Source of the DNA: an uncultured Chloroflexia bacterium
Lineage (GTDB): Bacteria; Chloroflexota; Anaerolineae; CG2-30-64-16
Assembly: GCA_963774265.1 (NCBI GenBank)
Contig: CAVZDU010000002.1
Span: forward strand, 544,001-608,000
Length of the DNA: 64,000 nt
Direction of reading: 5' to 3'
Shown: piece by piece, positions 14,665 through 39,059 of the stretch
How the letters are laid out: each line of letters starts with the position of its first letter
How positions within the stretch are numbered: the stretch's first letter is position 1
Notes under the pieces: generated by a model
Database searches by the model: none
Told to the model about the DNA's origin: nothing
Seen by the model: only the letters and a program-made list of their open reading frames with translations
Translations under genes and position numbers: made by a program

Positions 14665-14676
14665 GCGTTGTCCCGA

Positions 14677-15783
14677 TCAGATGCTGGCGTCTGCCAGGAG
14701 CGCCTGTGATTTGGCATCGAAGATGCGCAGCCCGGCCACGGGGAAGTCCATCCAGATTGGCGCACCGATCTCCATGCGCACCATCGCGCCGACAATCGCC
14801 TTCACATGAAGGTCGCCGCACATCAATGTCAGCAGCGTTTCCTTGCCGAGCACCTCGGAGATGTAGACCGTAGCGGCAATGGCGCCTGGCGTCCCCGCCG
14901 TCACGACCTGCACATCCTCAGGCCGGATGCCCAACACCACCTCAGCTCCCTCTGGCACGCTCGCAAGCTGCCCGCGCAGCACCTCCGGCACTGTGATCTC
15001 GAAGTGGGGCGAAGCGATCTTCCAATCCTGCTTGTCCAGCTTTCCCGGCAAGAAGTTCATTCCCGGATTGCCGATGAATCCACCCACGAAGGTGTTCTTC
15101 GGGTGAAGGTACACGTCCTCGGGATACCCGATTTGCAGAACCCGACCCCCGCTCATGACCACCAATTGATCTGCCAGCGTCATAGCCTCGGCCTGGTCGT
15201 GCGTCACGTACACTGTCGTCACGCCCAGATCACGCTGCAGCCGCTTCAGCTCCGCACGCATACTCACGCGCAACTTGGCGTCGAGGTTCGACAGCGGCTC
15301 ATCCATCAGGAACACTTCAGGCCGGCGGACAATGGCGCGGCCGATGGCGACACGCTGCATCTGACCGCCCGACAGCTGGCGAGGCAGCCGGTCCAGCAGC
15401 TCCCCGATGCCGAGGATCTCGGCAGTCTCATCCACCCGCCGCCGGATCTCCGGGCGCGGAGTGCGCCGCGCCTCGAGCGGAAACGCGATGTTCTTCCGGA
15501 CGGTCATGTGGGGATAGAGCGCGTAGCTCTGGAACACCATCGCGATGTTGCGATCCCAGGCGGGCACATGCGCCACCTCTTTGTCGCCGATGAAGATTTC
15601 ACCCGCGGTCGGCTCTTCCAGCCCTGCGAGCATCCTCAGCAAGGTTGTCTTGCCGCAGCCTGACGATCCAACCAGGACAGTCAGCTTCTTGTCCAGGAAC
15701 TCCAGGGTGATATCCTCTGCAGCCACCGTGTTGCCGAAGTGTTTCGAGATGTTGCGTACAAGGACTTTGGTCATCCAGGACAC
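14677..15783 (-). CDS. Carbohydrate ABC transporter ATP-binding protein (MalK-like)
   Basis: GSSGCGKT, MVFQSYALYPHMTV, LSGGQMQR, FLMDEPLSNLD, YVTHDQ; TOBE domain. Confidence 0.93.
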   Translation of the reverse strand: MSWMTKVLVRNISKHFGNTVAAEDITLEFLDKKLTVLVGSSGCGKTTLLRMLAGLEEPTAGEIFIGDKEVAHVPAWDRNIAMVFQSYALYPHMTVRKNIAFPLEARRTPRPEIRRRVDETAEILGIGELLDRLPRQLSGGQMQRVAIGRAIVRRPEVFLMDEPLSNLDAKLRVSMRAELKRLQRDLGVTTVYVTHDQAEAMTLADQLVVMSGGRVLQIGYPEDVYLHPKNTFVGGFIGNPGMNFLPGKLDKQDWKIASPHFEITVPEVLRGQLASVPEGAEVVLGIRPEDVQVVTAGTPGAIAATVYISEVLGKETLLTLMCGDLHVKAIVGAMVRMEIGAPIWMDFPVAGLRIFDAKSQALLADASI

Positions 15784-15835
15784 CTTTCTGTCGTCACGTC
15801 AAGCCTCAGGCCAGCCAGGTGAACAAGCAATCGAT

Positions 15836-16687
15836 CTAGTACTTCACCGCGCCTGCGGTGAGGCCGCGGATTACCCAACGCTGGAAAATCAGAACGATCA
15901 CGACCACCGGCAACAGGGCCAGCACAACGCCTGCCGAGATCCAGGTCCATTGTTGGCGGAATGCGAACGAGAAGTTCTGGATCGCCACAGGAATGGTCTG
16001 CACATCTTCGATCCCCAAGGTCACGACGGAAGCAAGCATGAACTCACCGTAGGAACCGATGAACGCGAACATGCCGGCCGCGAACATGCCTGGGAGCGAC
16101 AGCGGAATGATGACGCGGAGAAAGATCTGAAACGGCTTATAACCGTCGACTTTGGCGGCGTCCTCCAGTTCCCAAGGCAGCTCAGCGTAATAGCTGGCCA
16201 GCAGCCACGTCGCCAGGGGCACGCAGTAGAACATGTTCGGTATCACCATGGCCGGCAATGACTTGAGCAGGCCAATCGACTTAAGCAGCACAAACGTGGG
16301 AGCGATCGTCACGACAGGTGGAATCATTGCGCCGAGTTGAAGCAGCACCAGCGACTCTACCTTGTAGCGGAAACGCAGCCGGGCGACCGCGTAGGCGGCA
16401 GTGGACGAGACCACGAGGCACAGCGCCGCAGTTGAGAGCGAAACGATGAAGCTGTTGCGCAACGGGATCAGGAAGCCCAGCTCCAGAATAACCTGCCGGT
16501 ACGCGTCCAGGGTCGGCTCTCGCGGCCAGAGACTGATAGGCTTCAGGTACTCAGTCCCCATGGGCTTTAGGGAGGTGCTGAAGACCCAAAAAAGCGGGAT
16601 CATGCAGAACAGGGTGATCACGATCGTGGCCAGAAGCGAAAGCCCACGGTCGATCGTCTTGTTGTGTCGCTGCAGCCAGTCTTTCAT
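15836..16687 (-). CDS. Carbohydrate ABC transporter permease (MalG-like)
   Basis: EAA loop ELEDAAKVDG; six TM helices; C-terminal RGLTAGAVK. Confidence 0.92.
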   Translation of the reverse strand: MKDWLQRHNKTIDRGLSLLATIVITLFCMIPLFWVFSTSLKPMGTEYLKPISLWPREPTLDAYRQVILELGFLIPLRNSFIVSLSTAALCLVVSSTAAYAVARLRFRYKVESLVLLQLGAMIPPVVTIAPTFVLLKSIGLLKSLPAMVIPNMFYCVPLATWLLASYYAELPWELEDAAKVDGYKPFQIFLRVIIPLSLPGMFAAGMFAFIGSYGEFMLASVVTLGIEDVQTIPVAIQNFSFAFRQQWTWISAGVVLALLPVVVIVLIFQRWVIRGLTAGAVKY

Positions 16688-17849
16688 GCGCCTTTAAACC
16701 TCAAGTTCTTGCGGATCCGGCTCACGTAGAAGAAACCGAGGATCAGCACGATCACGAACACCACCATGCCGTAGGCCGAGCCCTGCCCGAACTGAGCGCG
16801 GCTGAAGTAGAATTTGTAGGCGAACGAGCTGAGTGTCTCGGTCGTCACACCGGGACCGCCCTTGGTCAGGCCGTAGATCAGATCGAAGGTGCGAATCGCG
16901 TCCATCGAGCGGAACAGCAGCGCGACGGCGATGGTCGGGGCCAGCAGCGGCAGCGTCAGCCGGCGGAAGCGATAGAAGCCGCGGGCCCCATCCACCTTTG
17001 CCGCATCGTAAATGTCCTGCGGTATGACCGCGAGCCCGCCTATCATCAGGATGGCGATCATAGACGACATCTTCCAGACGTCAGCCAGGATCACGGAGAA
17101 CCTGGCAAGCAGCGGATCGACGAGAAAGAGCGGCACTGACTTGAGAAGGCCCCACTGAACGAGCAGGCTGCCCAGACCCACGTCGGCGTTATAAAACCAC
17201 TTCCAGATTGCCGCTGAAATGATCGGCGGAATGGCCCAGGGGATGATGATCATGGATCGCAAGAAACCGGTCCAGTGTTTCCCCACCCAGAACGTCGCCA
17301 TCGCCATCCCTAGCCCGATCCAAAACTCGAAGAACACGGCCACGACCGTGAAGAGAAACGTCCAGCTCAGCGCGGACAGGAAATTCTTGCTGCGAAACAC
17401 GCTGGCGTAGTTGGCTAATCCAATGAAGGTCTCGGAGGTCCATTTGGTCGTGTGATCCAGTTCGTGAAAGCTATAGATGATAGTCTGCGCAATTTGATAA
17501 TAGTAAAAGAGGATGATGCCGACGACCGCGGGCAGCACGAACAGAAGCGCCAGTTCGGGCTCAGTCAACGTGATTCGGCGGAAGCCTCCCAGCCCGAAGC
17601 CAAGCGCCAGGCTTCCAACGATCGCCACGACGGCAGGCACAATGGCAAGCGCCGGCTGCACCACGAACATCAATGCCGCGACTATATACATCGCGCCCAC
17701 CGCTACGATCGCAGATACCGCCAGATTCGACCGCGGCCGCTCACGAGCACCCTTGCGCGCGCGAGCATGACCATTCCGAGGAAAAGGAGGCCCACGATCA
17801 AGACGTAGAAAAGCAGTATGCGAGCTACCGCCGTGAATGTGTTGCTCAA
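16684..17849 (-). CDS. Carbohydrate ABC transporter permease (MalF-like) with extra N-terminal TM helices; one frameshift near 17725
   Basis: FIGLANY, DIYDAAKVDGA, TKGGPG; probable TTG start at 17849 after GGAAAGG gives a hydrophobic ILLFYVLIVGLLFLGMVML helix. Confidence 0.85.
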
Positions 17850-17875
17850 AGCATCGACCTTTCCGCTGTCTTAGC

Positions 17876-17925
17876 AAAAACGGCTCTGAGGGCGGAAGGC
17901 GCTCTGGCCTTCCGCCCTCGAGCAG
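17876..17925 (-). terminator. Stem-loop after the solute-binding protein gene (attenuating terminator or mRNA stabiliser)
   Basis: GAGGGCGGAAGGC-N6-GCCTTCCGCCCTC perfect 13-bp stem, followed on the minus strand by a T5 run. Confidence 0.6.
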
Positions 17926-17931
17926 AGCTAC

Positions 17932-19353
17932 CTATTTGGCCAAGGCGTCGATCTGTTCGCAGGCATCATCCAGCGCAGTCTGAGCCGGCTTGAGGCCGGT
18001 CAGGGCGGCATGGATTTCCTCGGACAGAATCGATGTGATATCAGCGAACTTGGGAGACGGAATGGGCGGGATTGCCGTGTCCGCCACCTTCTGAATCAGC
18101 GGCATGTTCGGGTTGTTCTTGATGACGTCTGGGTCTGAGTAGACGTCCATGTGCGCCTGCACCGGGCCCTGCGACAGGTTGAATGCCTTCTGGACCGGGA
18201 AGTCGAACATCACCTCGAGCACCTTCGCGGCCGCTTCCGGGTTGTCCGAGAACTTGTTGATGGAGAAGCCCCAGCCCTCGAAGAAACCCGCGCCCTTGCC
18301 TGGCACGGTGGCCGGCATGGGGATGAAGCCCCACTTGTCGACGATCTTCGACTGCTTCGGGTCATTCAGCCAGAACATCATGTCCTGGCGTCCGGTGTGG
18401 AAGACCGCCTCGCCGCTGACGAAGCGCACCTGCGACTCCTCTTCCTTCCAGGTCAGGGCCTCTTTGGGGGTGATGCCCTTGTCAAACAGGCTCTTCATGA
18501 AGGTGAGCGCGGCCAGGCCCTTCTCGTCGTTCATCGCGCACTTGCCGTCTGCATCGAAGTACGTACCGCCGTAGCCGTTCAGGAACTCGACCCAGCGGTT
18601 GACGAGGACCTGATCCTTCAGCGCGGGCCAGGTCCAGCCGCTCATGCCCGGGTTTGCCTTCATGAGCGTCTTCGCGGCAGCGACCAGTTCGTCGTAGGTC
18701 TCGGGAGGCTTGATGCCGGCCGCTTCGAGCAGGTCTTTGCGATAGTACAGCCCGCCGATGCCGCCCCACCAGGGCCCCAGGGCCAGCAGCTTCCCATCGG
18801 CCGTGAAGGCTTCCAGGTAAGACGGGTTGAGCTTCGCAAGGATGTCTGGGTTGATCAGGTCGTTGAGCGGCATGAGCCAGCCGGCCTGCAGCGAACTCCG
18901 GCAGCCAGTAGAGGCCCATGCCGATCAGGTCGGTCGTGCCGTCCTCAGCCTGGAACCAGGCGAGGTAGTTGTCGCGCCAGGGACCCGCCTCGTACGGCAT
19001 GATGTTGAGCTGAACGTCGATGTTGGGGTACTTCTTGGCGACTTCTTCCCGGATGGCATCAATCGGGGGGCTGGCCGGCCCAAAGGTCTTCTCGAAGTAG
19101 CCGTTGTACGCGATCGTCACGATTTCCTTCTCCACAGGGACCTCGACGGTGACAACCTTCTCGACCTCCTTCACGACCTCTTTGGGAACCTCGACCGTCT
19201 GAATAACGGTCTTCTCGACTTGCTTCTGAACTCGACCACCTGGGTCACGACCTTCTCCACCACCTGGGGAGTCGGTGCGGCGCAAGAGGTCAGCAAGGGC
19301 AGGACGATCATCATCGCGACCAGGACTAGCCGGAAAGTGCTCTTCTTTGACAT
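17932..19353 (-). CDS. Extracellular solute-binding lipoprotein, family 1 (sugar type), frameshifted
   Basis: Lipobox LLTSC; V/E/K-rich linker; LYYRKDLLEAAG..PETYDEL; GWGFSINKFS; indels near 19230 and 18890. Confidence 0.88.
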
Positions 19354-19487: not shown

Positions 19488-20462
19488 TCATTCCCAGAAA
19501 TTGTGCGGCCAGGCATGCGCCTCCAGCGCAGCCAGGTCGCTGTCGGGCAGCGGCCCCCGGTCGGAGGCGGCTACGTTCTCGCGCGCATGATGTGGTTTGC
19601 GCATGCCAGTAACCACCGTCGTGACGGCCGGGTGGCTCAGGCAGAACCGCAGTGCGGCCTGGGCGAGCGTGTCGCCCTCCTCGCGGAGCAGGAATTTGAG
19701 CCGCTCTGCCCGCTCCGCCACCTCGCGCCGGCGATCGCCGGAGAAGTAGAAATCCAGGAAGCTTCCCTCGGGGAACGTCGTTTCGGGCGTGATCTTGCCG
19801 GTCAACGCGCCTTCGTCGAGCGGGGATTTGACGATGATGCCGACTTGTCTCTTCAAGCGCCAGCGGGAACAGCCCCTGCTCCGGTGCTTGCTCCCAGATG
19901 TTGTACGTGACCTCACAGGCGTCGATCAAGCCGGTGGCGATGGCCTCGTGCGCCATAGTCGGGCTCCAGCGGATAGTTCAGCGACAGGCCGAACGCGGCC
20001 ACTTTCCCTTGCTGCTTCAGTTGCAGAAAGGCCTCTTTCCATTCATCCTGGCCGGCCCATTCGTCCAGCCAGACGTGCAGCAGCTGCAGGTCCAGGCACT
20101 CGACGCCGAGCCGCTTGAGGCTCTTCTCGGTGGACTCGATGATCCAGGATTTCGGAAACACCTCGGCAAGCGGTGTGCCAGGCGCGGCCGGCCACTTGAA
20201 GTTCATCGGATTGACCTTGGTGGAAACGTAGATGCGCCCAGGCCAGCGAGCCACGGCCTGCCCCACGAGCTCTTCGCTCAGGCCATCGCCATAGTTGGGC
20301 GCAGTGTCAACGAAATTGACGCCCAGACTCGAAGGCCGCCCGCATGGACGCCAGCGACTCCTCATTATCGGCCCCGGCCCACCAGGCCCCACCGATGCCC
20401 CAGGCTCCGAACCCAATCTCAGAAACCTGAAAGCCCGTCTTGCCAAGCTGTCGATAACGCAT
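19488..20462 (-). CDS. Aldo/keto reductase, frameshifted
   Basis: MRYRQLGKTGFQVSEIGFGAWGIGG; GVNFVDTAPNYGDG; STEKSLKRLG..DLQLLH; LAQAALRFCLSHPAV. Confidence 0.88.
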
Positions 20463-20514
20463 AGGTTATGCTCCTTATTGCAGTGAAGGATTGTCTGGAA
20501 CGATGCCAGTCTGA

Positions 20515-21964
20515 TCAGCCCGACGTGCGCTGCGCAAAATAGTCGCGCGCTTCGTCGAGAATACGGTCCAGGTCCGCATCTTGAGCCGGCAGTCGTGAAT
20601 GCAGTGCTCCGGCGCCGCCAAGATCTCGGCCAGCTTCGTGCGAGCATGGTCGAGCGCGGTCTTTTTGCCGCCCTCCAACCATTCGGGATAAGAAAGTGAA
20701 TCGGCCGTTGCCGGGATGAACTGCTCTTTGCGCCACCATTTCCGCGTGTGCGGCCGGCTCAGATAGTGACCTGGAATCGGACCGACGGCCTGGATCAGCT
20801 CCACGGCAAGAGCATCCTGGCTCATTTCCTCGCCCGATGCGAAGCGGCCAACCATGCCCGCGATATCGTCATCAAGAATGGCCTGCACAGGGTGGGCCGA
20901 CAGCTCACTCGAGACGCCCAGGTGGAGCAGCATCGAGTTCACACCGGAGAGTGCCGACAAGATTGCGGCGATCCCCTTTTCATAGCCCGCCTGGAACTCG
21001 ATGCCCTTGGCGCTGACATAGCCCGGGCTGCCGTTGCTGAGCGGGAGGCCGTAATGGCTCCACAACTGGTTGAAGATGGCATTGCTGAGCGATGCGCCGA
21101 TCTGGCCGAAGGCCGGCGAACCGGTCCGCATGTTGAGCGGCGCGGAGAAGTGGCCGATCAGCATGCGGTGTCCCGCATGCAAGCACTGGACCAGCACCAC
21201 CATTGCCAGATGCTCCGCGCGTGCTCACGATCACGGAACCGGGCACGGTCGCCGGACCGGTGCCGCCCATCATCGCGCCATCCACCGTGGTCAGCGCGTA
21301 GCCGGCTTCGACAATGCGCCTTGCCGAGGTGATGGCCCCGCTGCCCCAGGTCAGCGGCGGAGAAGAGCCGATGGTCCCGACGATCTCGTGCCCGAGCGCC
21401 TGCGCCATCTGAAAGGTGAAGAGCTCCGCGTCATTGGAGCAGGCGGTCATCTGGTGCTTATCGGAATATTGCATGTGCAGGGCGACGCCCGCAGGGATGG
21501 CCAGGACGTCCGGCATGTCGTCAAAGCCGAAGTAAGGATAGCATCCCAAGTGATCGAGGTGCGGCAAGGCCTGCAGCACCCGAATGCAGTCGATGTACTC
21601 ACGCCGGGTGGGACGGCGCGGCTCCAACGTGTCGAGGTCAATGGTCTGCATGCCGGAACTGTGCGAGAAGTAGAACCGGTCGCCCCCGAGGACCAGGTCG
21701 TTCGCCGGGTTCGGCGCGGCCACGGAGAAAGTCCGGGGCGCCTGCGACAGGCATTCTTCGACCAGCTCGCGAGGAAACCGAACCCGGTCCGCGGCCTCAT
21801 CGACCGCGCAGCCCTGCCGAGCGAGGAAGGCCAGCGCCCAGGGGTCCTCAAACCGGACGCCTGTTTCCCAGAGCACTTGAAGCGTGCCCTCGTGCAGCGC
21901 CTTGATTTGCTCTTCCCCCAACATCTGCAACGATGTCCGCGCGCGTGAAGCCCTGACGAGCCAT
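20515..21964 (-). CDS. Trimethylamine methyltransferase (MttB) superfamily protein, non-pyrrolysine, frameshifted
   Basis: QIKALHEGTLQVLWETGV, RVRFPRELVE, SSPPLTW, MMGGTGPAT, NMRTGSPAFG, QAGYEK, VGPIPGHYL. Confidence 0.85.
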
Positions 21965-21978: not shown

Positions 21979-22626
21979 TCAAACCCCCAGCAGCGTGTGC
22001 GCCAGTTTTACGGCGCCCGGCGCTGTCGGGTCATAGCCATCTGCGCCGATCGAACCGGCGAACTCCCGCGTGATCCCTCCGCCGCCCACGATCACCTTGA
22101 CGCGATCGCGCAGGCCTGCCCCCTTCAGCAGCTCGATCACCTTCTTCTGTTCGGCCGCGGTGGTGGAGAGCAGCGCGGACAGCGCCAACAGCCTGGCGTC
22201 GTACCGGTTCACGGCGTCCACGAACTCCTCGGCCTTGATGTTGATCCCCAGGTCATGGACCGAGAAGCCGGCCGCGCGTAACAACGTGGCCACCATGTTC
22301 TTGCCGATGTCGTGGATGTCACCCAATACAGTGCCGATGACGACGACGCCCAGTCCCTCGTGGCGCACCCCGCGGCGGGCGATCTCGGCCTCGAGGATGG
22401 TCGTGCCCGCAGACATCGCCTCTGCGGCCGCGATGAGGTCAGGAAGCCACAGATCACCGCAGGCAAAGCCGTCGCCCACGGCACGAATCGCATCGGTGAG
22501 CGCAGCAAGTGCGACCAACGGGTCGACCTGCTCTTCCACTGCCTGCCTGGCCCAGTCTGCAGCGGCTTCAGGATCGCAATCGGTGACGGCCTGACCCAGG
22601 CCTTGCAGTATCTCGGGTGCTTCCAT
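21979..22626 (-). CDS. Corrinoid (cobalamin-binding) methyl carrier protein, MttC/MtbC-like
   Basis: GDIHDIGKNMV (DxHxxG), LSALLSTT, VKVIVGGG and GADGY motifs; N-terminal cap LWLPDLIAAAEAM. Confidence 0.92.
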   Translation of the reverse strand: MEAPEILQGLGQAVTDCDPEAAADWARQAVEEQVDPLVALAALTDAIRAVGDGFACGDLWLPDLIAAAEAMSAGTTILEAEIARRGVRHEGLGVVVIGTVLGDIHDIGKNMVATLLRAAGFSVHDLGINIKAEEFVDAVNRYDARLLALSALLSTTAAEQKKVIELLKGAGLRDRVKVIVGGGGITREFAGSIGADGYDPTAPGAVKLAHTLLGV

Positions 22627-22666: not shown

Positions 22667-23542
22667 TTACTTCATCAATTCCCGCAGGAAATACTTGTGC
22701 TTGCCGAACTGGCCGCCGAAGTTCATGGCCGTCAACGCCAGCACCCCCGGCACCTGCGCGGCTGCAGTCAGCGACAGGCCCATTGCCCTGGCCATGACAC
22801 CGGCACTCGCGCCGAACATCAGCAGGTTCAGCACGGACCCCACGCCTTCCGGAATCTTGGTGTCCTCGATCTGGTCGCGCAGCGATGGGATGTAGTCGAA
22901 TTCGCGGAACACTTGCTCCAGCCCATAGCCCATCGGCGCCACACCGTCCACCGCGGCGATGGCCTCCTTGGCGGCCAGGATCGCGGCCACGGCCGACGCT
23001 GCGTTCACGGCGAAGCAGACGAAGTGGCCATCGGTGCCCTCGACGCTGATCTGGATGGTCTTCTCGTAGGCGAACTCGCCGGTAGTCGTGGGCACCACGC
23101 ACATGACATGGCCGGCCTCGGTGCGCTCCGTATCCTTTTCAGACCACCGCTCCTTGGACATCTCGAACTTGTCATGGAGGTTGACGCGTCACGGTCTGCA
23201 CGCCAGGGATCGCAGCGTCGTAGATCGTCACCGTCGGCACCAGGGAGGCCAGGGCCACGCGCAGCTCGAGCTCCTTCAGCAGATCTTCCCGGCTGGCCGG
23301 GACGTGCGCCATTGAGACAAAGACGCCGGGGCGATGGTCCGGGGTCTCGTGCGGGAAAGGCGGCGCGCTCGATCCCGGCAGTTGAACCTGGAGCCGATCA
23401 TGCTTGACCCGCCTGCGCCGGCAAACTGATTGGCCGCGCCCAGGGCCAGCTCCGCAGTCATGGCGGTGATCAGGACACGGGATACTTCCAGCGTCCAGGC
23501 TTCTGCAAAGGTGTCGTAGACTTCAACCGCATTACCGTTCAT
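22667..23542 (-). CDS. Formylmethanofuran-tetrahydromethanopterin formyltransferase (Ftr)-like protein, divergent, frameshifted
   Basis: AAGGAG RBS; VEVYDTFAEAW..SRVLITA; ETPDHRPGV; VPTTTGEF; IPEGVGSV; VPGVLALTAMNFGGQFGKHKYFLREL. These match remembered Ftr segments IEDTFAEAF..RVLITA, ETPDGRPGV and PGVVKISAGNFGGKLG. Confidence 0.8.
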
Positions 23543-23561: not shown

Positions 23562-24580
23562 TTATGCGTCGTGAACGACCTGAACCTTCAGGCCCTCTTG
23601 CCGGCGCGCGATCTCAAAACCATCCTGCACCTGTTCCAGCGCGAAGCGATGCGAGATCAAAGGCTTGACCTGCACGACGCCGGCGCGGATCAGGGCCAGC
23701 GCATCCTCGAATTGCGCGATCGTCGAGTCATAGCTGCCGACGAGTCGCAGCTCTTTGTAGTGGATCAGGTCGAGGTCCAGGGTCACCTCAGGCACCAGGG
23801 TCGCGGCAAAGTAGAGCACATGGCCGCGCCGTGCGGCGAGGTCGATGGACTGCTTGAGCACAGCGACGCTGCCCGCGGCGTTGACGACCACGTCCGCGCC
23901 GCGGCCGTCCGAGCACCTCACGCACCGCGGCGAGGACGTCCTGTTTCTGCGAATTGAGCACCAGGTTGACGCCCAGACTGCCCGGCGACAGCCAGCCGGT
24001 GGTCCAGCAGGCCAATCATGACGGTGTACGCGCCGCGATGGCGAAGCATCTGCGCGTGCATCAGGCCGATCGGCCCGTCGCCGATGACCACGGCGACCGC
24101 GCCCGGCGCGACATCAACCTTGGACTGGCCGTTCACGACGCAGGCCAGGGGCTCCGCGAAGGCGGCTTCCTCTAGGGAGACGCCGGCGGGCACCTTCACC
24201 AGGTTGGCGAAGGGATAGGCCGCATACTGGGCCAGGCCGCCCGAGAAATAGCCTGCGTTCTGGCAAGCGCTCCACATGCCGCGGCGGCAGTAGTAGCAGT
24301 AGCCGCAGGGCAGCCGGCCATCGGCCACCACAGCGTCGCCCGCCTTGACGGTGGGCACCTCCGCGCCGGCCTCTACCACCGTCCCAGACAGCTCGTGGCC
24401 CATGCGGAACGGATAGGTGATCGTCCAGCCGCGGGGCTGCTTGCCGACATAGGCATCCACATCGGTGCCGCACACGCCGCAGTAGGCGACCTTCAGGAGA
24501 ACCTCTCGCGGGCCGATCTGGGGCATCGGCATCTCATCGACCTGCATGACCAGCGGCCCGTGAAGCCGTGCGACTTTCAT
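23562..24580 (-). CDS. Zn-dependent alcohol/polyol dehydrogenase (MDR family), frameshifted
   Basis: CGVCGTD, GHE, CGYCYYCRRG..C, EPLAC, VIGDGPIG. Confidence 0.9.
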
Positions 24581-24589
24581 AGCAACTCC

Positions 24590-25977
24590 TTATAGCGCAT
24601 TGAAGTAGGCGGGAAGCTCGATCCCGGCCTCCGTAAAGCGGGCCTGTGCGTATGCAACCGCCTCGCCGACCCACGCTTCTTCGTCAAGGGTTCGTATCCG
24701 ACGATCTTCCATCACGATCTGCCCGTCGCAGATCACGGTGGTCACGTCATGGCTCGAGGCGCAGTAGACCAGGCTGTTCTCGATGCGATTGATGGGCCGC
24801 ATGTGCGTGCCGGTCAGATCGACCAGGATCAGATCGGCCTTCTTCCCGCTGACCAGCGAGCCGATCTCCCGATCCATGCCCAGGGCCTCGGCGCCGCCCA
24901 GGGTCGCCATACGCAGTGTGACGGCCGCGGGCAACACGCGCGGATCCATGGTGGTCACTTTCTGCAGGAACGCTGCAGTCCGCATCGCCTCGAACATGTC
25001 CATGTTGTCGTTGACCGCACAGCTATCGGTGCCCAGCGAAACGACAACCCCGGCATCCAGGAATTTGCGGATCGGCGCGACCCCATCGGCGATCTTCATG
25101 TTGCACTCAGGGTTATGCGCCACCTTCGTGCCGGTCCTGGCGAAGAGCTCGATATCCTCGTCCGAGAGCCAGATGCAGTGCGCGCCGAGCACGTCGGGTC
25201 CCAGCAGGCCGAGGTTGTGCAGGTGCTGGGTGGGGGTGGCACCGAACAGTGACTGGATGTTGTGCCATTCGTACTCGGTCTCGGCGATGTGGATGTGGAC
25301 CGCGACGCCCTCACGGTCCGCGCGGCGGCGCACCTCGCGAATCAGATCGACGCTGCATGAGTTCGGGCAGGCCAGCCCATAGCGGAATGTGACGTCGGCC
25401 GCCAGCCGAGCCGGCGCACCGTTCTCGCAGCGCATCGGCCAGCTTGTACAGGGTCGCATGGGGCAGCAGCACGTCGGGCGAGATCCACTGGTCCGTCATG
25501 GTGAGCGTGTGGACCACCCGGATGCCCGCCTGCTCGAACACATCAACCACGCAAGGATCAGTCGCCCACTCCATATTCAGGATCGTCGTGATCCCGGCCC
25601 GGATGGCGTCGACGCAGCCGAGCCGCGACGAGTGCAATTGCGCAGCATGCGTCCCGCTCAGGTAGTCCTGCACCGCGACCTTGATCCTCGGCACCGACAC
25701 CTGGTCGATCCAGTCCAGCAGGGACAGGTCGTCACGCGTGCCCTTGTGGAAGTTCTGCAGGAAGTGGTGATGGGTGTCGATCAGGCCCGGCATGACTGCC
25801 TGCCTGCGCCGTCGATCACCTTGCGGGCCGGTAAGCGCGGCTCGACCTCGGCGCGCGGGCCGACGGCCACGATGCGCCCCGCGATCGATTGCGACTGCGC
25901 CGTGTTCGATCAGCGGCTGCGCTGTCGTCCAGGGTGACAACCAGCCGGCCCAGGACCAGCAGATCGATCTCAGTCAA
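24590..25977 (-). CDS. Amidohydrolase, MTA/SAH-deaminase/AtzA-like, frameshifted
   Basis: VMPGLIDTHHH, HIHIAET, GAHCIWL, AHNPECNMK, LGTDS, SLVSGKKADL; probable TTG start. Confidence 0.88.
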
Positions 25978-25978: not shown

Positions 25979-27141
25979 CTACAGCGCCTCGTTCAGCAGG
26001 TCGACGATGTCGGTCACGGTCAGATTCAAGCCGGCCTTGGCCACCGATCGCTTCAGGTTGACGACGCATGTGGGGCAGGAGGAAACCACTTGCGTCTGCG
26101 CCGGCCGCGGCCGCCTGTTGGAGCCGTTCGACCGCCGACATCGCCCGCAAGATCGGTGAACGCGCTGAGCACGCCACCGCCCGCGCCGCAGCACAGGGCG
26201 TGCTCCCGGTTCGAGTACATCTCGACCAGCTCGACGCCCGGCACCGAGCTGATCAGCTCGCGCGGCTCATCGTAGATGCCCATGTGGCGGCCCATGATGC
26301 ACGGATCGTGGTAGGTCACCTTGCGGTTGATCGCATGGAGCTTGCCGGCGGCCAGGCTCGGGAAGAATTCGTGGGTGTGCTGGAAGTTCAAGCCCCGAAT
26401 GAATGCCCAAATCCTCCGGATAGACTCCCGTGAAGGCCCGGTAGCAGCCGGCGCAGGTCGTCAGCACGACGTCCGGCTGGTAGGCCTTGATGCGTTGGCC
26501 AGCGTGTATTCGGCTGCCTGCCTCATGGCGTCCATCTGGCCGATATCGAAGAGCGGATAGCCGCAGCACGCGTCCTCTTCCAGCACCGCGTAGTTCACGC
26601 CCAGCTTGTCGAGCAGTTCCGTCGGTCGACTTGCCGATGCTCTTGATCTTGCGCACGGTCTGGCAGCCCGGGAAGTACAGCACGTCGACCTTGTGCGGGC
26701 GTGACCGCCACCTGTGATGGGACGCGCCGCGCGGGGCCGAAGATGCTGTGATGCTGCACGGTGTTGTCTGCCACCGCGGCCTGGTTCTCCGTCATGATGC
26801 CGGCATCCACCAGGTCCGCACGCAGGGCGGTCCAGATCTCGAAGCAGCGGCATGCCCACCGGGCAATGCTCCCCACAGCTTCCACACAGGGAGCACTGGG
26901 CCAGGTGCTCCAGGAAGGTCTCATCGATATCCACTTCCCCCTCGAGGAGCTGCTGCGCCATATTCACACGCCCGCGGGCGTACTGGGTATCAAACGCCTC
27001 GGTGTAGGGATAGGTCGGGCAAACCCAGTCAACGCCTTTCCAATTCCACACGCGGCAGAAACCGCAGCGGCTGCAATCAAATACTTCCTTGCGCAATGCC
27101 TCGAGGCGGGAGGCAGGGATTCTGCTTGTCGCCATCTTCAT
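25979..27141 (-). CDS. Fe-S oxidoreductase with CCG domains (HdrD/GlpC/GlcF-like), frameshifted
   Basis: [57 protein letters not shown]. Confidence 0.88.
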
Positions 27142-27177
27142 CTCCTTATATCGACGTTATTGCTGCGGCAGTAAGCG

Positions 27178-28531
27178 CTATAACCCGATGACACCCGGGT
27201 TCATGATGTTGTTCGGGTCGAGCATGGCCTTGATGGCCTTCTGGAGCCGCCAGTAGCCGGTGTTCCTGCATGTGCTTCTGCAGATAGGGTCCCCACTGCC
27301 GGCCCTTGGAGTAGGGCGCTCCGCCCAGTTCCAGCGCCCGATCCATCATCTCCTGCATGGCATTCCAGACCTTGGCACGCTCGGCCATGTCGTCCGGGTG
27401 GTGGAACATCAGGCTGACATGCTCGGAACCGTGCGGCTCCGGGAACATCTGCTGAACATAGACCTTGATGTCATGGCGGTCCATGATCCGCTTCATTTCG
27501 TAGGTTGCATCGACCAGCTTATCGAAGGGCAGGAAGTAGTTCACCGCACCTGCGATGCCCTCTTTGAACTCCTCGCCGGTCAGGAACCAGCGGTTGTTCC
27601 AGAACTTCTGCACCCCTTCGGTGCCCAGGCACTCCATGTCCGGGATGCCTGGCGATCAGGCCGCGGATCTTCTTGACCCGCATTTCCACGTCGTCCTCGT
27701 CCCCTTCGACGTTATAGTGGAAGATGATCAGCTCGCCCGGCTTGATGACGGGCACCGAGATGTAGCAGACCAGGTTGTTGATTGCCAGATCGCGGAACAA
27801 GGCTGACGGCCGAAGCCAGGTCCGCGGTCTTGTAGACTTCCAGGAAGAATTTCTCAGGGAAGGGGAAGATGCGCAGCGTACACTCGGTCATGATGCCGAA
27901 CGCGCCTTCAGCGCCGATGAACAGCCCCGTCAGGTCGGCCCCGAGCCCGTAACGGAAGAACACGTCGGAGTTGGATTGGCGGCCGAGCCGGTGCAGACGA
28001 TGTCACCGTTCGGCAGCACCATCTTGAGGCCCAGCGCCTGATCGCCGGAGCTGATGTACTTGATGTTGCCCCAACCGACGCCGGGCCGTGAGATGTGGGC
28101 GCCCGGCGTGCCGGCCATGGCGCCCGAAGGCGCAATGCCGATCTTCCAGCCGCGCTGCTCCAGCGTGTTCATCAGGCTGACGTAGGTGATGCCGGACTGG
28201 CAGGTTACGGTCCCATTGGTCTCATCGATCTCGAGGATCTCGTTCATGCGCAGCATCTCGATCGTGATGCCGCCGCCTGCCGGGGGTGTGGAGCCGGCTT
28301 CCTGGGCCGAGCCGCCCCCGCGTGGCACGATCGGCACCTTGTACTCGTTGGCGATCTTGACGATCTCAGACAACTTCTTCCGTGGTCTTCGGGCCGCACG
28401 ACCAGGTTCGGCATGCTCGGTGGCATGGTGCCGAAATCCCTGGAGTACGCCTTGAGCACAAACGGCTTGTCTGAGACATATTGCGGACCGACGACGTCGG
28501 CCAGGCGCTTGAGGATTGCCCCGTAATCCAT
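27178..28531 (-). CDS. FAD-linked oxidoreductase (GlcD / D-lactate dehydrogenase family), frameshifted
   Basis: VPRGGGS, RMNEILEIDE, GLKMVLPNGDIV, DLTGLFIGAEGAFGIMTE; C-terminal LDPNNIMNPG. Confidence 0.87.
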
Positions 28532-28563
28532 TAGTTCATCACTCCTCGTGTTGCGGCTGCAGC

Positions 28564-29333
28564 TCAGTCGCTGAGCCGCCTGGTGGAAAAGACGACTTCG
28601 TGCAGCCCTCGTACGACGCTTTCGGGATCGCTGGCTTGCCAGACGCGGCGGCCGAATGCCACACCCGCCGCGCCTGCGGCGAATCGCATCCCGCGCCACG
28701 TCCAGCGTGTTATCAGCGCCGCCCTCGCTCGGCCCGCCCGCCACGATGATGGGCACGCTGGTCGACGCGACGACCTGCTCGAATGCTGGCCAGAGTTGCC
28801 GCAGTAGTTCGTCTTGACGATGTCGGCGCCGAAGTTCCATGCCGATCCGCGCCGCGTGCGCGATCTGCTCCGGCGCGTAGAATTGATCCGGCGGCGGCAT
28901 CATTTCGGCCAGCACCGGCATGCCCAGCCCGCCGCACTGCTCGATCAGTTCGCCGAGCCACTGCATGAGGTAGGGCTCGCCACCTCGACCAAAGAAGATC
29001 GATACGGCCACCGCGTCAGCATCCAGGCGCAGCGCGGTGGTTGCTGTGACGGCAGGGATCTCCTGCCGGGCTTCAGCACTCAGGCCTGCGCTGACACTGA
29101 CCCGCAGAACAATCCCGACATCAAGTGGAATCAGATCCGACACCTGGCGAAGAAAACCCGGCGTGAGCAATAGGGCCGTGGCGCCTCCGGCGATGGCACT
29201 GGCGACGATCTGGCGTGGGCGATCGATCCCGGCAGACGGGTCCCAGCCAGGGACCATGATCCAGTGGAACCATGAGGCATCGCTTCTCCGGACCAGCCAG
29301 GAGTCTCCGCAATCGTCTTTGCTTTCCGGTCAT
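28564..29333 (-). CDS. Class I aldolase, DhnA/LsrF/ADH-synthase family, frameshifted
   Basis: MVPLDHG, DADAVAV, GMPVLAE, HAARIGMELGADIVKTNY (Schiff-base Lys), PIIVAGG. Confidence 0.85.
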
Positions 29334-29368
29334 GTGCCATCCTCCTCGAAGCGTGTATTGGGGTGTAA

Positions 29369-29493
29369 CCGCCGGACGTAACGTCCGGGCTACGGCAACG
29401 CCCCGTGAACGGGGCTGACGATGCGTTAGCCGGCTCGGTTAGCCCGCTTCAGCGGGCGCTGCTAGGTAGCCCGGCGACTTTAGCGCCGGGCGG
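29369..29493. repeat. Inverted pair of ~50-bp REP-like units (BIME-like)
   Basis: Both units read AGCCCnnTTCAnnGGGCG-nTGC-n(1-3)-GTAGCCCGG-loop-CCGG(G)CGG; one on each strand. Confidence 0.65.
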
Positions 29494-31011
29494 TCTGCCG
29501 TCCGCGGTCATCTCCGGCGGCGCAACCAGCTTCGCCGCAAACTCGCTGAAATGGCGATAGGTGACGTAGCCGGCGTCGTACGTCGACGCCGAGATCGGGC
29601 TGATGCCTGACCCAGTCGGGAGGCTCGAAGGTGCTCTCGAGCGCAGCAGCCATGTCCGCTCCGTCCAGTGCCTGCTGGTACAGCGCAAACAGGACGCGTG
29701 TGACGGTCTCTTCTTCGGTATAGATGGTCGCATCGCGGCCGCAGACATCGGCAATGATCTGCGTCAGGCCAGGGGTTTTGGTCCCCCCGCCCGCCAGCGC
29801 CAGCTCCTCGATGGGCAGGCCCATCTCGCCGTAGATATCGAGTAGATGGCGCAGGCTGTAGGCGATGCCCTCCATCGCTGCCCGCAGCATGTGCCGGCGA
29901 TCATGGGCCAGGCGCAAGCCATAGAACCCCGCGCGGATCTCATCCGACCAATAGGGGCTGCGTTCGCCGGCCAGGTAGGGAAGAAACACCAGTCCATCTG
30001 AGCCAGGCGCCACTTCGAGGGCCGTGTCGGGTCGCCTCCTCGAAGGTGAGCTCAGCCGACTGGCCCCGAAGAACCTGCTGCTAGCATCCAGACCAACGAT
30101 GCGCCCGTGGTCGAGGATACGCCGCCCGCCAGCCGATAGGGCGGCAGGAATGGGTAGACGTACAGGCGATCTCTGGGGATCGTCCGCCTGCTGCTCCGGC
30201 GCCAAGCGCCATGAAGATCATCGATGAACTGCCCAGCGAGCAGACGACACGCCCGGGGCGTGGCGGGGCTCCGCCGATCAGCGCCGCCACATCGCCCACA
30301 CCGTTGATGATGGCCGGGCCTGGGATTGAGGCCGAGTTCGCCGGCGACGTCGGGCCGCGGCAGTACCGACAACTGCGCATCGGCCGGCAGAATGGGCGGC
30401 AGAGACGCTCGGCGTCCAGACCGGTCAGCGCAAGCCGGTCCAACGCCCAGGTCTTGGTGCGACCAATCCAGCAACGCTGCTCCGCCACACTCGGTCAAAT
30501 CCGTGCCCACCAGCCCGGAAAGCCGGAAGCGCAGATAATCCTTTGGCCACAGGATGGTGCGCACACCTGCGCCAGAATTTCGGGACGATGACGGCTCAGC
30601 CAGAGCAGCTTGGGGAGGGTGTACGTGCTGTTGAGCTGATAGGGCGGCAGTCCCAGGCGCTTCTGCAGCTCCTCTGTCTCCCCGGCTGCTCTGCGATCGA
30701 GCCACAGAATCGTCGGCGGCACCACCCGCTGCGCGGCGTCGAGCAGCACGGCGGAATGCATCTGACCGGTGAATGCGACCGCATCGACCTGATCCAGGCC
30801 CAAGCCACCCTGCTGCAAGTTCTCGCGTCGCTTCCCAGAACGCGGTCCACCACGCCTCAGGGTCGCCCTCGGCCCACCCCGGCTGAGGCGTCGTGTACGA
30901 ATAGCGTCGCACTGCGACCTTGAGCACTTGCCCCGCGTGGTCGTACAGGACCGCCTTGAGCGAGGATGTGCCGACATCGGCCGCCAGCAAAGCAGGGGTG
31001 TGCGGGGCCAT
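29449..31011 (-). CDS. FGGY-family carbohydrate kinase (xylulokinase-like), frameshifted
   Basis: AADVGTSSLKA, FTGQMHS, ILWLDRR, YTLPKLLWL, PKDYLRFRL, FLPYLAGERSP, RAAMEGIAY, LAGGG. Confidence 0.88.
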
Positions 31012-32033
31012 CAGACAGCCTCGCCGCCGACCTCGACCATGACCTTCATGCCTTCCGCGATTCAGCACGAGCTCGAAGCCTTCATGCAGGCGCTCGAGCG
31101 GCAACAGGTGGGATATCAGCGGTTCCACCAACACCTGGCCCGACTCGATGTAGCGAAGCGCCTCGTGCATGTCCTCAGGCGTCGAGTCAGCCGATCCGGT
31201 CAGGATCAGCTCCTTGTAGTGGATCAGGTTGGGGTCGATGTTCAGCGGCGCAACGGGATACATGCCGGCGAAGATATTCAGCCGCCCGCCCGCGGCCAGA
31301 CACTCGGCCGCCTCGAGCACGAGCGGGGAGGACTCCCACGGCCACCACGGCTGCGTCGACGCCTGCACCGCCGGTGGCCGCCATGACTGCTTCCCGCAGG
31401 TTGGCTGCCTGGCTGTTGATCACCACATCCGCGCCCAGCTTGCTGGCCAGGCTCAGCCGATCGTCGATCAAATCGGCAACGATCACCCGCGCGCCATAGC
31501 GTCTGGCCACCTGCATGTGCATCACGCCGATCGGGCCGGCGCCGATCACCAGCTCGGTCTCGACCGGCGCCAGGTGCAGCAGTCTCTGACCGCGCACGAC
31601 GCAGGCCAGCGGTTCAGTGAACGCGGCGGCCCGGTAGGAGGTGGTGTCTTCGCGGATCGGGAAGATGTTGCGCTGCGGGAGGACCGCATACTCTTCATAG
31701 GCGCCGTTCGGAAAGCGGGGGTGCTGGCAGCGGTTCGAGCGGCCGGTGCGGCAGGGGTCACAGGCGCCGCATTTGACGATGAAATCCGCCATGACTCGCT
31801 GGCCCGGCTTGAGATGCTTGACCTCACTGCCCACTTCCACGATACGGCCAGCTGCCTCATGGCCCATCACTCGGGGCAGCGGAACGTTCTTCTTACCCGC
31901 ATAAACCCGCACGTCCCAGGGGCAGATGCCCACGTAGGCAATCTGCACCAGGACCTCATCCGGCCCGACAGCCGGGCCGGGGTATCTCGCGCTGCTCGAA
32001 CTGGCCAGGCGCCACCAGCCACATAGACCGCAT
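31011..32033 (-). CDS. Second Zn-dependent alcohol/polyol dehydrogenase, frameshifted
   Basis: VGICPWD, GHE, CGACDPCRTG..C, EPLAC, VIGAGPIG, NLIHYKEL. Confidence 0.9.
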
Positions 32034-32105
32034 CGTTGGGGTGTTCAATGAAATGCTCCTGCTCGCCATCGAGGCTGAAAGGACGTTACCGTGTCTCGCC
32101 GGCCC

Positions 32106-32868
32106 TCATCGCCCAGGGAGCGATGTCCGCACTGTATATTTGTACCGATCCCCGCGGCTGACCATGCGGGTATACTCTACAGGTTCATCGTCATCCGAGT
32201 AAATGATGCTCTCCACAAGCAGCAGCGGTGAACCCGGCGACACCTCGAGCAACTGGCTCTCCCGCAGACTGCCCGCCACTGCCTGGATTGTCGCTTCCGA
32301 CCGGGCAAAGGTTACGCCTTGAAGTCGCAAGACACGCCACAGGGAGGCCTGACCCTGCAGCTGCGCAGGCGTCAACACGACATGGGCTGGGAGCCTGAGA
32401 TGGGAGGTGGATACAATCGTCGGCTCATCGTCGACCAGGCGGAGCCGCTCGACGATCCAGATCCACTCCCCCTCCTCCACCCGCAGTGCAGCAGCCACAT
32501 CGCCGATCGCAGGTTCCTGCCGCAAGGAGAGCAGGCGTGAGCCGGCCCGAAGTCCGATTGCCTCCAGCTCCTCAGAGAAGCTGCGGAGCTGTGAGAGCTG
32601 TCGCTGAATCTTGGGGCGAGCGACGAAAGTCCCTTTTCCCTGATGCGACACCAGGTAACCTTCGCGTACGAGGTCGTTGATCGCCCGCCGAACCGTGATA
32701 CGACTGACACCGTAGGTGTCACAGATCTCACGTTCGGTCGGAATCGGGTCACCCTTCTCCCAGTGGCCTTGCTCGAGCGTGCCCAGCAGCGCCTGGCGCA
32801 ACTGGTGATACAGCGGCAGGGGCGACGTCGCGGTCAACCGCGGCAGGATCCAGAACAGCTAGTCCCAT
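32106..32868 (-). CDS. GntR-family (HutC/UTRA) transcriptional regulator; frameshift near the start
   Basis: PLPLYHQL, IPTEREI..YGVSRITVRRAI, QGKGTFV; UTRA domain ending PVEYTRMVSRGDRY. Confidence 0.92.
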
Positions 32869-36844: not shown

Positions 36845-36882
36845 CCTTTTGCATTTATCGAGGAATTCGAAAGGAGCACAAC

Positions 36883-37571: not shown

Positions 37572-37581
37572 GAGCATAACC

Positions 37582-38970: not shown

Positions 38971-39059
38971 AACGGAAGGGCCGTGTTTAACCGGATGACC
39001 ATACACTGCGCCCAGTATGACCTGGCCGCCGGGTATGGTCGTTTCATTGGAGATAGACA

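Follow-up and report, generated by a model that had tools for sequence, protein, structure and literature searches.

A bacterial branch of the Ftr family with a rebuilt active site in a conserved sugar/methylamine gene cluster

What does a homolog of formylmethanofuran-tetrahydromethanopterin N-formyltransferase (Ftr) do in a bacterium that encodes it among genes for the breakdown of sugars and methylamines? The question is raised by a 64,000-nucleotide (nt) stretch of DNA from an uncultured Chloroflexia bacterium (NCBI GenBank assembly GCA_963774265.1, contig CAVZDU010000002.1, positions 544,001 to 608,000 of the forward strand), referred to here as the window, in which an Ftr-like gene for a product of about 290 amino acids (aa) lies on the minus strand at positions 22667 to 23542. 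The gene is in a small, previously undescribed bacterial branch of the Ftr family in which the active site is rebuilt. Since the clade with this rebuilt site is always found inside one conserved sugar/methylamine-degrading cluster, it probably has a new job.

The Ftr-like gene and its family

An initial annotation, made from the letters of the window alone, had the coordinates and strand of the gene right, and all of the motifs that it quoted were found in the three-frame translation (DTFAEAW, RVLITA, ETPDHRPGV, PMGYGLEQVFREF, VLNLLMFG, and NFGGQFG). Both of the Pfam families that it proposed to search, FTR (PF01913) and FTR_C (PF02741), were matched above their gathering cutoffs. The open reading frame (ORF) at 23276 to 23542 (minus strand) matched FTR with 41 bits (E value of 2.3e-10, profile positions 1 to 51, cutoff of 27), and the ORF at 22667 to 23161 (minus strand) matched FTR_C with 66.8 bits (E value of 2.9e-18, profile positions 76 to 149, cutoff of 25); an intact homolog (L021) scored 88.8 and 72.9 bits, respectively. 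With the C-terminal piece as the query, 161 proteins were retrieved at an E value of ≤0.001 among 8000 scored candidates, and the best 120 of these 161 were 288 to 311 aa long and carried both Pfam domains. The closest match was an intact 290-aa protein (P0001) that is 93% identical to the window protein. In a tblastn search with P0001, its residues 1 to 290 aligned with the window in four in-frame pieces at 92 to 96% identity (joint E value of 3e-143). Together with the three-frame translation, this search found three breaks in the gene and not the two frameshifts first described, all of them single-base +1 insertions, located near 23380, in a T/C run at 23353 to 23358, and at 23186; between the first and second insertions, a stretch of 7 to 9 residues (AGIERAAFP) is read in the third frame.

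In HMMER searches the intact homolog aligned end to end with the Ftr proteins of Archaeoglobus, Methanosarcina, and Methanopyrus (1m5h, 1m5s, and 1ftr; E values of 1e-36 to 1e-33); its alignment with Methylorubrum FhcD (6s6y_D) was weaker. A superposition on solved Ftr, which the initial annotation had proposed, bore out the relationship: the AlphaFold2 model of P0001 (predicted local distance difference test [pLDDT] score of 84.2) reached template-modeling (TM) scores in Foldseek of 0.85 to 0.86 with Ftr (1ftr_A, TM score of 0.86 and E value of 9e-29) and 0.78 with FhcD, and the next PDB match outside Ftr had a TM score of 0.21. A search of the ESM Atlas for look-alikes outside the FTR/FTR_C Pfam families gave no usable match. 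Because the alignment spans the full length, the model superposes, and nothing else in the PDB is close, the window protein is a true member of the Ftr superfamily, and this membership is solid. It is the only Ftr homolog in the host genome. Members of the family are called formylmethanofuran-tetrahydromethanopterin N-formyltransferase in Pfam and JGI annotation; the member in "Candidatus Formimonas warabiya" (P0121, WP_148135144.1), whose locus lies at about 3.228 to 3.249 Mb of the genome, is named a hypothetical protein in RefSeq, in keeping with an NCBIfam score below the cutoffs.

A separate clade and its active site

The phylogeny that the initial annotation had called for set the subfamily apart from canonical Ftr and FhcD. 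In a maximum-likelihood tree of 52 full-length sequences, from which four frameshifted or truncated rows were left out, all 15 subfamily rows formed one branch with a support of 100/100 and a stem of 0.91 substitutions per site; its sisters were the single sequences P0124 and P0123, both of which score below the NCBIfam cutoffs. Curated models gave the same separation, with 7 of 7 clade members scoring 163 to 178 bits on NCBIfam NF002554 (cutoff of 297) and 140 to 160 bits on the FhcD equivalog TIGR03119 (cutoff of 292.6) and the canonical controls (P0128, L030, and L032) scoring 412 to 438 bits. Among 1.84 billion representatives at 50% identity, the Ftr superfamily comprised 309 clusters at an E value of ≤0.001, and a gap in score, from 314 down to 165 bits, separated the clade's two full-length representatives from those that followed. 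A scan of 185,579 species genomes with two peptide patterns yielded 25 loci, a count that is a lower bound, of which, by record title, 20 belong to Chloroflexota (Anaerolineae, Anaerolineales, and Caldilineales), 4 to Clostridia, including Formimonas, and 1 to a Thermotogae metagenome-assembled genome (MAG). The label "archaeal-type" in the initial annotation was therefore not borne out for this clade, which is bacterial and was found only in these groups. The fused Ftr proteins P0134, P0145, P0147, and P0185 were considered as relatives and set aside, being canonical Fhc-type fusions with high Pfam scores, and the apparent 35% identity of locus L027 was a frameshift artifact, as its frames read the subfamily motifs. 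Our literature search returned no paper on the clade, on its gene cluster, or on a role for an Ftr homolog independent of tetrahydromethanopterin (H4MPT). The main text of the Formimonas metaproteomics paper does not mention a formyltransferase, an amidohydrolase, or a xylulokinase (PMC9768040), and in Chistoserdova 2016, Chloroflexi are merely listed among the phyla with H4MPT-linked genes.

The HMMER alignment places Asn238, in the motif LN-LLMFG, opposite the Glu of VYEIVING in Methanopyrus kandleri Ftr and of VLEIVID in FhcD. By our count on the alignment, the M. kandleri residue is Glu245. As outlined by Hemmann 2019 (PMC6926001), the active site of FhcD lies at the homodimer interface, and its conserved, protonated Glu252 presumably stabilizes the tetrahedral oxyanion. 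Asn238 is invariant in 17 of 17 subfamily sequences, down to 56% identity, as is the loop PMG-x-GLEQ-x-x-RE-x-DY, and 102 columns are invariant overall. Among 38 other full-length representatives, 4 were garbled by frameshift or truncation; the Glu is kept in 29 of the 34 readable ones and not in the other 5. The loop that precedes the Asn is about 10 to 14 residues shorter in all 15 subfamily rows and is rewritten to the sequence above, whereas the canonical loop GG-x-x-x-SGSK...ASTN is kept in nearly all representatives outside the clade. Other motifs of the pocket region are changed too, with GTDGH in place of GGN and VPTTTGEF in place of the strand IP-x-x-EGEF, and the superfamily-wide motifs DTFAEA, ETPDGRPG, and NFGG-x-x-G are invariant in the clade.

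The proposal that the catalytic residues are altered held for the Glu, replaced by the invariant Asn238, and for the loop, which is shortened and rewritten. The canonical long loop carries Ser209 in M. kandleri, the putative catalytic Ser of the initial annotation. Since the loop with Ser209 is gone, one substrate site certainly differs from that of canonical Ftr. Because all 17 sequences share these replacements without exception, even at a divergence down to 56% identity, the active site, as read from the alignment, is rebuilt under selection and not decayed. A homodimer was predicted with a score of 0.91 (best control, 0.00), a value that may reflect likeness to, or memory of, solved Ftr dimers; among solved structures, 20 of 30 homomers and 1 of 23 monomers scored as high. 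The dimer runs agree in at least 98% of contacts, with a predicted partner pLDDT of 93, and the predicted interface includes the new loop (residues 204 to 220) and residues 235 to 238.

The clade thus stands at some distance from both described forms of the enzyme. It shares with Ftr of methanogens and Archaeoglobus (1FTR, 2FHJ/2FHK, 1M5H, and 1M5S) the two-lobe fold over the full length at about 29 to 34% identity, the N-terminal DTFAEA and ETPDGRPG and C-terminal NFGG-x-x-G motifs, and a predicted homodimer formed through the same regions. It differs in that the Glu of VYEIVING is Asn, PFPGGI-x-S-x-SK...ASTN is replaced by PMG-x-GLEQ-x-x-RE-x-DY, GGN by DGH, and IP-x-x-EGEF by VPTTTGEF; its members score below the NCBIfam cutoffs and occur in genomes with no H4MPT pathway detected, as part of a catabolic cluster for sugars and methylamines. 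The clade therefore departs from the Ftr/FhcD enzyme proper (EC 2.3.1.101) in four features: the score on curated models, the Glu of the active site, the long loop, and co-occurrence with the pathway. FhcD of the FhcABCD complex of Methylorubrum extorquens (6S6Y) is likewise a bacterial Ftr homolog and works, through a site at the dimer interface, beside an amidohydrolase-superfamily enzyme, but in the account of Hemmann 2019 it keeps Glu252 and the residues that bind H4MPT and methylofuran and is encoded with FhcA, FhcB, and FhcC (PMC6926001). The window cluster has no FhcB or FhcC homolog, its amidohydrolase is of the deaminase type, and the Glu is Asn; the subfamily profile reaches only 87 bits against FhcD.

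Searches of the host genome (5.5 Mb, 84% complete) agree with this separation. The initial annotation had asked about the rest of the genome, and in this 84%-complete assembly no markers of H4MPT or methanofuran were detected: Mch and Fae were not found, nor were β-RFAP synthase, a marker of H4MPT biosynthesis, and MfnB, a marker of methanofuran biosynthesis, and no FwdA/FhcA homolog scored above the cutoff (best score of 30 bits versus a cutoff of 393). All controls for these searches were positive in methanogens. The window itself has no Fwd/Fhc, Mch, or Fae genes. The protein thus matches both Pfam families and does not group with canonical Ftr with an intact site in a genome that has the full H4MPT pathway. 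In the genomes of five relatives, Mch was present in three and lacking in two. A canonical FwdB-FwdA-Ftr-FwdC-Mch cluster was observed in the chromosome of Formimonas (L030; G001, 864 to 882 kb), a dichloromethane-fermenting bacterium of the Peptococcaceae, and in a Caldilineaceae MAG (L032; G003:C23). All genes of these two clusters score above the NCBIfam cutoffs, their Ftr proteins (412 and 438 bits) keep the Glu and the long loop, and in Formimonas the cluster is followed by an MptN-like ligase gene (232 bits versus a cutoff of 350). Both genomes hold, in addition to the canonical Ftr, an Asn-type paralog elsewhere in a catabolic cluster, and the presence of separate canonical and Asn-type proteins in the same genomes is the clearest sign of a different job for the latter. 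A 2.2-Mb Clostridia MAG (G005, the genome of locus L019) has seven Mch matches, at C35:3586-11220 and C4:43620-58149, five of them within 8 kb on one contig, and one of these regions holds an ATZ/TRZ-type amidohydrolase and a Pterin_bind homolog; Mch paralogs may have been recruited to other tasks in these bacteria.

The gene cluster in the window and in other genomes

All genes of the cluster are present in the window, where they occupy the minus strand between 32837 and 13777. At its head (28655 to 32837) are a GntR/UTRA regulator (32106 to 32837; Pfam GntR and UTRA on the window ORF), a Zn-dependent alcohol dehydrogenase (ADH1), a xylulokinase-like FGGY kinase, and a DeoC/LacD class-I aldolase, identified by tblastn to the homologs in L007, L011, and L021 and by the Pfam and NCBIfam matches of those homologs. 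A GlcF-like Fe-S/CCG subunit and a GlcD-like FAD-linked oxidase of the 2-hydroxyacid dehydrogenase type follow at 26053 to 28576, both split (Pfam Fer4_8 and CCG; tblastn to GlcD/GlcF of L011 and L021; Pfam and NCBIfam matches of the L021 homologs), and then an amidohydrolase at 24590 to 25946, split once (Pfam Amidohydro_1, 2 to 88 and 129 to 345), which the NCBIfam and PDB neighbors of its L021 homolog place in the ATZ/TRZ-adenosine/methylthioadenosine (MTA) deaminase group. Immediately upstream of the Ftr-like gene lies a second Zn-dependent alcohol dehydrogenase, ADH2 (23562 to 24580), also split once, its Pfam domains ADH_N and ADH_zinc_N falling in consecutive ORFs. The Ftr-like gene is 40 nt upstream of an intact corrinoid protein (21979 to 22626; Pfam B12-binding and B12-binding_2; 68% identical to the L007 homolog), after which comes a homolog of the MttB methyltransferase superfamily (20475 to 21948) with no sign of a pyrrolysine codon. 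The latter gene is split by frame changes, with Pfam MTTB 31 to 271 in one ORF and 280 to 477 in the next and frames -2/-3/-2 relative to the L007 homolog, and it is a distant relation of the glycine betaine methyltransferases 2qne and 9yce (150 bits). The initial annotation placed the Ftr-like gene directly upstream of the corrinoid protein and MttB, which is true of the window but not as a general rule, the order being that of one lineage. The cluster goes on with an aldo/keto reductase (AKR) at 19491 to 20501, split by about three frame changes (Pfam Aldo_ket_red; tblastn frames -3/-1/-2/-3), and ends at 13777 to 19285 with a sugar-type ABC transporter (SBP_bac_1, two permeases, and a MalK-like ATPase) and a Pterin_bind methyltransferase (13777 to 14664), identified by Pfam and by tblastn to the L007 homologs. 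An MTTB protein, a B12-binding/B12-binding_2 protein, and a Pterin_bind methyltransferase are thus encoded together, as in an MttB-type system. About 1.1 kb past the end of the Pterin_bind gene, a fused HPPK and GTP cyclohydrolase I gene of folate/pterin biosynthesis is found at 11531 to 12646 on the minus strand.

A divergent operon on the plus strand (34507 to 45780), assigned by Pfam, begins with the large subunit of a Mo-hydroxylase of the xanthine dehydrogenase family (34507 to 36832), a second corrinoid protein (36817 to 37485), and an uninterrupted MtmB-like gene of 462 aa (37582 to 38970; Pfam MtmB, 258 bits, profile positions 4 to 448). A PreA-like DHO_dh+Fer4 (4Fe-4S) protein, a tungsten-type aldehyde:ferredoxin oxidoreductase (AOR), an M20 amidohydrolase, and an Amidohydro_1 protein lie within 39060 to 40091, 40208 to 41950, and 42761 to 45780. 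The homolog of MtmB (monomethylamine methyltransferase) has no in-frame stop, and so no pyrrolysine codon, and adjoins its own corrinoid protein; we know of no established substrates for such nonpyrrolysine homologs. The set as a whole resembles reductive breakdown of pyrimidines or N-heterocycles, beside methyltransferase genes. A Pst-type phosphate transporter at 46187 to 51689 on the plus strand (PBP_like_2 binding protein, two permeases, an ATPase, and PhoU) marks the end of the catabolic island on this side, and a very long ORF of 1883 aa occupies 58085 to 63736 on the minus strand, near the end of the window.

Single-base frame changes are pervasive here, at about one per kilobase both between 13800 and 32800 and in the genome generally, as is typical of an unpolished long-read assembly. 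When the 17 genes between 13.8 and 32.8 kb were compared by tblastn with intact homologs from other loci, at least 16 frame changes were counted, and at least 10 of the genes were affected. The host assembly has 10 contigs for its 5.5 Mb and yet a marker completeness of 84%. Other long-read MAG loci of the same family (L003 and L027) are likewise riddled with frame changes. Any "pseudogene" call in the host genome needs caution given how pervasive these changes are.

Clustering of ORFs together with Pfam and NCBIfam matches gave a recurring gene order of GntR/UTRA, Zn-dependent alcohol dehydrogenase, FGGY kinase, DeoC/LacD aldolase, GlcD-like, GlcF-like, Amidohydro_1, ADH2, Ftr-like, and AKR. 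In tblastn searches over the 25 loci and the window (n = 26), eight of these loci being cut short by contig ends, ADH2 was present in 24, the amidohydrolase and AKR in 22 each, the FGGY kinase and DeoC aldolase in 20 each, the GlcF-like protein in 19, the GlcD-like protein and MttB in 17 each, the corrinoid protein in 14, GntR in 13, the MtmB-like protein in 10, SBP_bac_1 in 8, AOR in 7, and Pterin_bind in 5. The constant partners of the Ftr-like gene are therefore the Zn-dependent alcohol dehydrogenase, AKR, FGGY kinase, and DeoC/LacD aldolase. The kinase scores 346 bits on the xylulokinase model (cutoff of 380), and the aldolase is nearest to the ADH-synthase and LsrF models. The amidohydrolase scores best on the NCBIfam models for TRZ/ATZ hydrolases and 5'-deoxyadenosine deaminases, and its nearest solved relatives are 4dzh, 3lnp, 4dyk, and 4gbd, titled "amidohydrolase" or "uncharacterized protein," and 4f0r, titled MTA/S-adenosylhomocysteine deaminase. 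A Bmp/PnrA-type (nucleoside-type) binding protein adjoins the Ftr-like gene in three loci, and the Clostridia loci have a transporter of the energy-coupling factor (ECF) type. Binding proteins of the Bmp/PnrA type belong to the clusters of L003 and L005, and an ECF S-component belongs to that of Formimonas. When 401 genomes of the phylum were sampled, two of them, the host included, held both the Ftr-like gene and a match to the aldolase at ortholog level; neither gene occurred in any other, and none of the 401 carried the aldolase ortholog in an "Ftr-less" variant. Because of this co-occurrence, the cluster behaves as a rare unit that is transferred together.

Possible functions of the Ftr-like enzyme

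Given that the fold, the predicted interface site, and the shared motifs are kept, that the Glu has become Asn, and that one pocket is rebuilt, the simplest reading would be that the carbonyl chemistry of the family is kept. The clade would then be a neofunctionalized Ftr-fold enzyme acting on a formyl or small acyl group on an amine with new partners, a reading that we favor tentatively and place a little short of an even chance. Such an enzyme would work without H4MPT and methanofuran. The amide of the Asn could donate the same hydrogen bond as the protonated Glu, so that carbonyl chemistry would persist at the dimer-interface site, and a formyl or small acyl group on the amine of a pathway intermediate would be moved or removed, most likely to or from tetrahydrofolate (THF). 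The intermediate, derived from an N-methylated, sugar- or nucleoside-like compound, would stand in place of methanofuran, and THF would stand in place of H4MPT. A link to folate is offered by the Pterin_bind methyltransferase in the window cluster and the HPPK-GTP cyclohydrolase I gene beside it. The suggestion of a repurposed Ftr fold was the right part of the initial annotation, the protein being a superfamily member in its own clade with a rebuilt site and without detectable H4MPT genes; its further suggestion, that formyl would pass from a ring-opened N-formyl intermediate to THF, is conjectural.

The pathway around such an enzyme may be compared with known systems. Nonpyrrolysine MttB-superfamily systems of quaternary-amine:corrinoid methyltransferases (MtgB/MtgC/MtgA, and MthB/C/A/K of Eubacterium limosum) likewise combine an MttB homolog, a corrinoid protein, and a Pterin_bind methyltransferase, and the choline system of E. 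limosum has a kinase encoded alongside (PMC12155760); the kinase of the window cluster is of the FGGY sugar-kinase type and not of the MthK type. The window MttB homolog, at 150 bits, is also only remotely similar to the glycine betaine methyltransferases. To our knowledge, no described MttB-type system includes an Ftr homolog, a class-I aldolase, or a GlcD/F-type oxidase. The ydj-type rare-sugar cluster of Escherichia coli consists of two Zn-dependent alcohol dehydrogenases, the AKR YdjG, a kinase, an aldolase, and a regulator, which is the same logic of AKR, two alcohol dehydrogenases, kinase, and aldolase. The AKR of the window-type cluster has YdjG as its best NCBIfam match, and the PfkB kinase of L015 matches YdjH, but the kinase and aldolase of the window-type cluster come from other families, and we know of no Ftr-like, corrinoid, MttB, or amidohydrolase genes in the ydj cluster. 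An AKR, two alcohol dehydrogenases, a kinase, and a class-I aldolase make up a classic route from an aldose-like compound through a ketose phosphate to dihydroxyacetone phosphate and an aldehyde; judging by family functions, the AOR and the GlcD/F-type enzyme would oxidize the aldehyde and hydroxy-acid products. Together with the pterin-binding methyltransferase, the genes for MttB, MtmB, and the corrinoid proteins indicate, by analogy with the systems of MtgB and MthB, probable removal of N-methyl groups to THF. Because sugar-type enzymes, N-methyl methyltransferases, a deaminase-like amidohydrolase, and nucleoside-type transporters occur together, the gene content points to a putative N-methylated substrate in which a sugar or polyol moiety would be linked to an N-heterocycle or an amidine. 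We considered as candidates methylated nucleosides of the m7G/m1A type, N-formyl or N-methyl amino sugars, pterin or flavin cofactors with polyol tails, and MTA-like 5'-substituted adenosines. In its fullest form, which we consider unlikely as a whole, the proposal would be that the new Ftr-fold activity is a folate-dependent trans-formylase or trans-acylase that salvages one-carbon (C1) units from an N-formyl intermediate of a methylated nucleoside-, pterin-, or amino-sugar-like compound, inside a previously undescribed corrinoid-dependent catabolic pathway that feeds methyl and formyl groups to the folate pool and owes its presence in Chloroflexota, Clostridia, and Thermotogae to horizontal transfer.

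Several observations weigh against the retention of carbonyl chemistry in a working enzyme. The chemistry is drawn from family membership and one residue only, the Ser209-bearing loop of canonical Ftr is gone in the clade, and the FTR_C profile is matched in its second half only (about 75 to 149), both by the window piece and by L021. Among the window ORFs scanned, none encoded a formate-THF ligase, FolD, or another enzyme of formyl-THF metabolism. With a host genome that is 84% complete and has many frameshifts, the H4MPT genes are "not found" rather than absent. In loci L015 and L016, the Ftr-like gene is accompanied by ADH2, kinase, aldolase, GlcD/F, and AKR, and a GH4-type glycosidase, a PfkB kinase, and a URO-D-family gene take the place of the amidohydrolase and MttB; because neither of the latter lies within 10 kb in these two loci, the Ftr-like gene is linked most tightly to the genes of the sugar-processing core and not to the N-heterocycle or methylamine genes. 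Finally, one soil-metagenome run shares 8% of sampled words with the window, but its contigs leave 23174 to 23537 uncovered and their pieces are mostly less than 90% alike. As the reads of this public run do not reach there, the frame changes at 23174 to 23537 stand uncontradicted, and all three fall within 200 nt in the 5' third of the gene, as might be expected if the window copy were a genuine pseudogene, the decaying remnant of a gene once linked to H4MPT, with three real frameshifts. We consider this highly improbable, since the same kind of break recurs, at about one frame change per kilobase, in at least 10 of the 17 genes of the cluster, loci L003 and L027 are broken in the same manner, the three changes are all +1 and together restore the frame, and the clade overall is under strong constraint. 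With the neighbors split alike and the pieces free of internal stops and deletions and more than 90% identical (92 to 96%) to the intact protein, the frame breaks are most likely assembly errors, as judged from these comparisons, and neither decay nor biology. Hardly more can be said for an ordinary Ftr/FhcD that moves formyl between methanofuran (or methylofuran) and H4MPT with scavenged cofactors or with genes missing from the assembly. The name given to the family by Pfam and JGI, the presence of Mch in three of the five relatives' genomes, and the incomplete host genome would all accommodate it, yet the Glu required by the published mechanism is Asn in all members, the clade scores about 120 to 130 bits under the curated cutoffs, five pathway marker families were not found in the host, and in genomes that do bear the pathway, the Fwd-Mch cluster has a canonical Ftr of its own, the Asn paralog lying in a catabolic cluster.

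Under the main rival, which we regard as somewhat unlikely, the protein would have lost the C1/pterin chemistry altogether and would either convert a sugar-derived intermediate in the pathway of the kinase and aldolase, perhaps as an isomerase, lyase, or hydrolase, or serve as a ligand-binding subunit of one of the neighboring dehydrogenases. The most constant neighbors would fit such a role (ADH2 in 24, AKR in 22, and FGGY and DeoC in 20 each of the 26 loci), the more so as FGGY and DeoC occur in every locus with a full upstream flank, L015 and L016 do without the amidohydrolase and MttB, and no isomerase was recognized in the cluster. The replaced catalytic Glu and Ser209 loop and the hydroxyl-rich motifs that line the pocket (PTTTGEF and GTDGH) are also in keeping with it. 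However, DTFAEA, ETPDGRPG, and NFGG-x-x-G are still invariant, Asn would be a conservative swap for a protonated Glu as a hydrogen-bond donor, and we know of no Ftr-fold protein with such an activity, nor did the literature search return one. The loss of the Glu together with a dimer interface that is predicted to be kept, and an amidohydrolase two genes upstream that is of the same superfamily as FhcA/FwdA, could instead indicate a noncatalytic scaffold or regulatory subunit, a quite improbable role given that neither the replaced loop nor the Asn varies within the clade, as would suit a working rather than a relaxed site. The amidohydrolase, moreover, belongs to the ATZ/TRZ-deaminase group and not the FwdA group, is missing from two loci, and is not accompanied by FhcB- or FhcC-like scaffold genes in the cluster.

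Ftr has so far served as a marker of one function only, C1 metabolism with H4MPT/methanofuran, and the names given by automatic pipelines to the proteins of this clade still follow that use. In MAGs of Chloroflexota and Clostridia, that name can be misread as a methanogenesis-like or methylotrophy-like C1 pathway, and the combination of Asn in LN-LLMFG with the PMG-x-GLEQ loop provides an annotation rule against this misreading. The relevance of these results lies mostly with specialists in C1 enzymes and with the correct annotation of such MAGs and would become wider if the substrate of the associated nonpyrrolysine MttB/MtmB system were found. The presence of one member in the enrichment-cultured "Candidatus Formimonas warabiya" DCMF makes the function accessible to experiment. 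Only a few substrates are known for the MttB- and MtmB-like families, and the clade points to a probable novel enzyme activity on the Ftr fold and to a putative novel substrate for their nonpyrrolysine methyltransferases.

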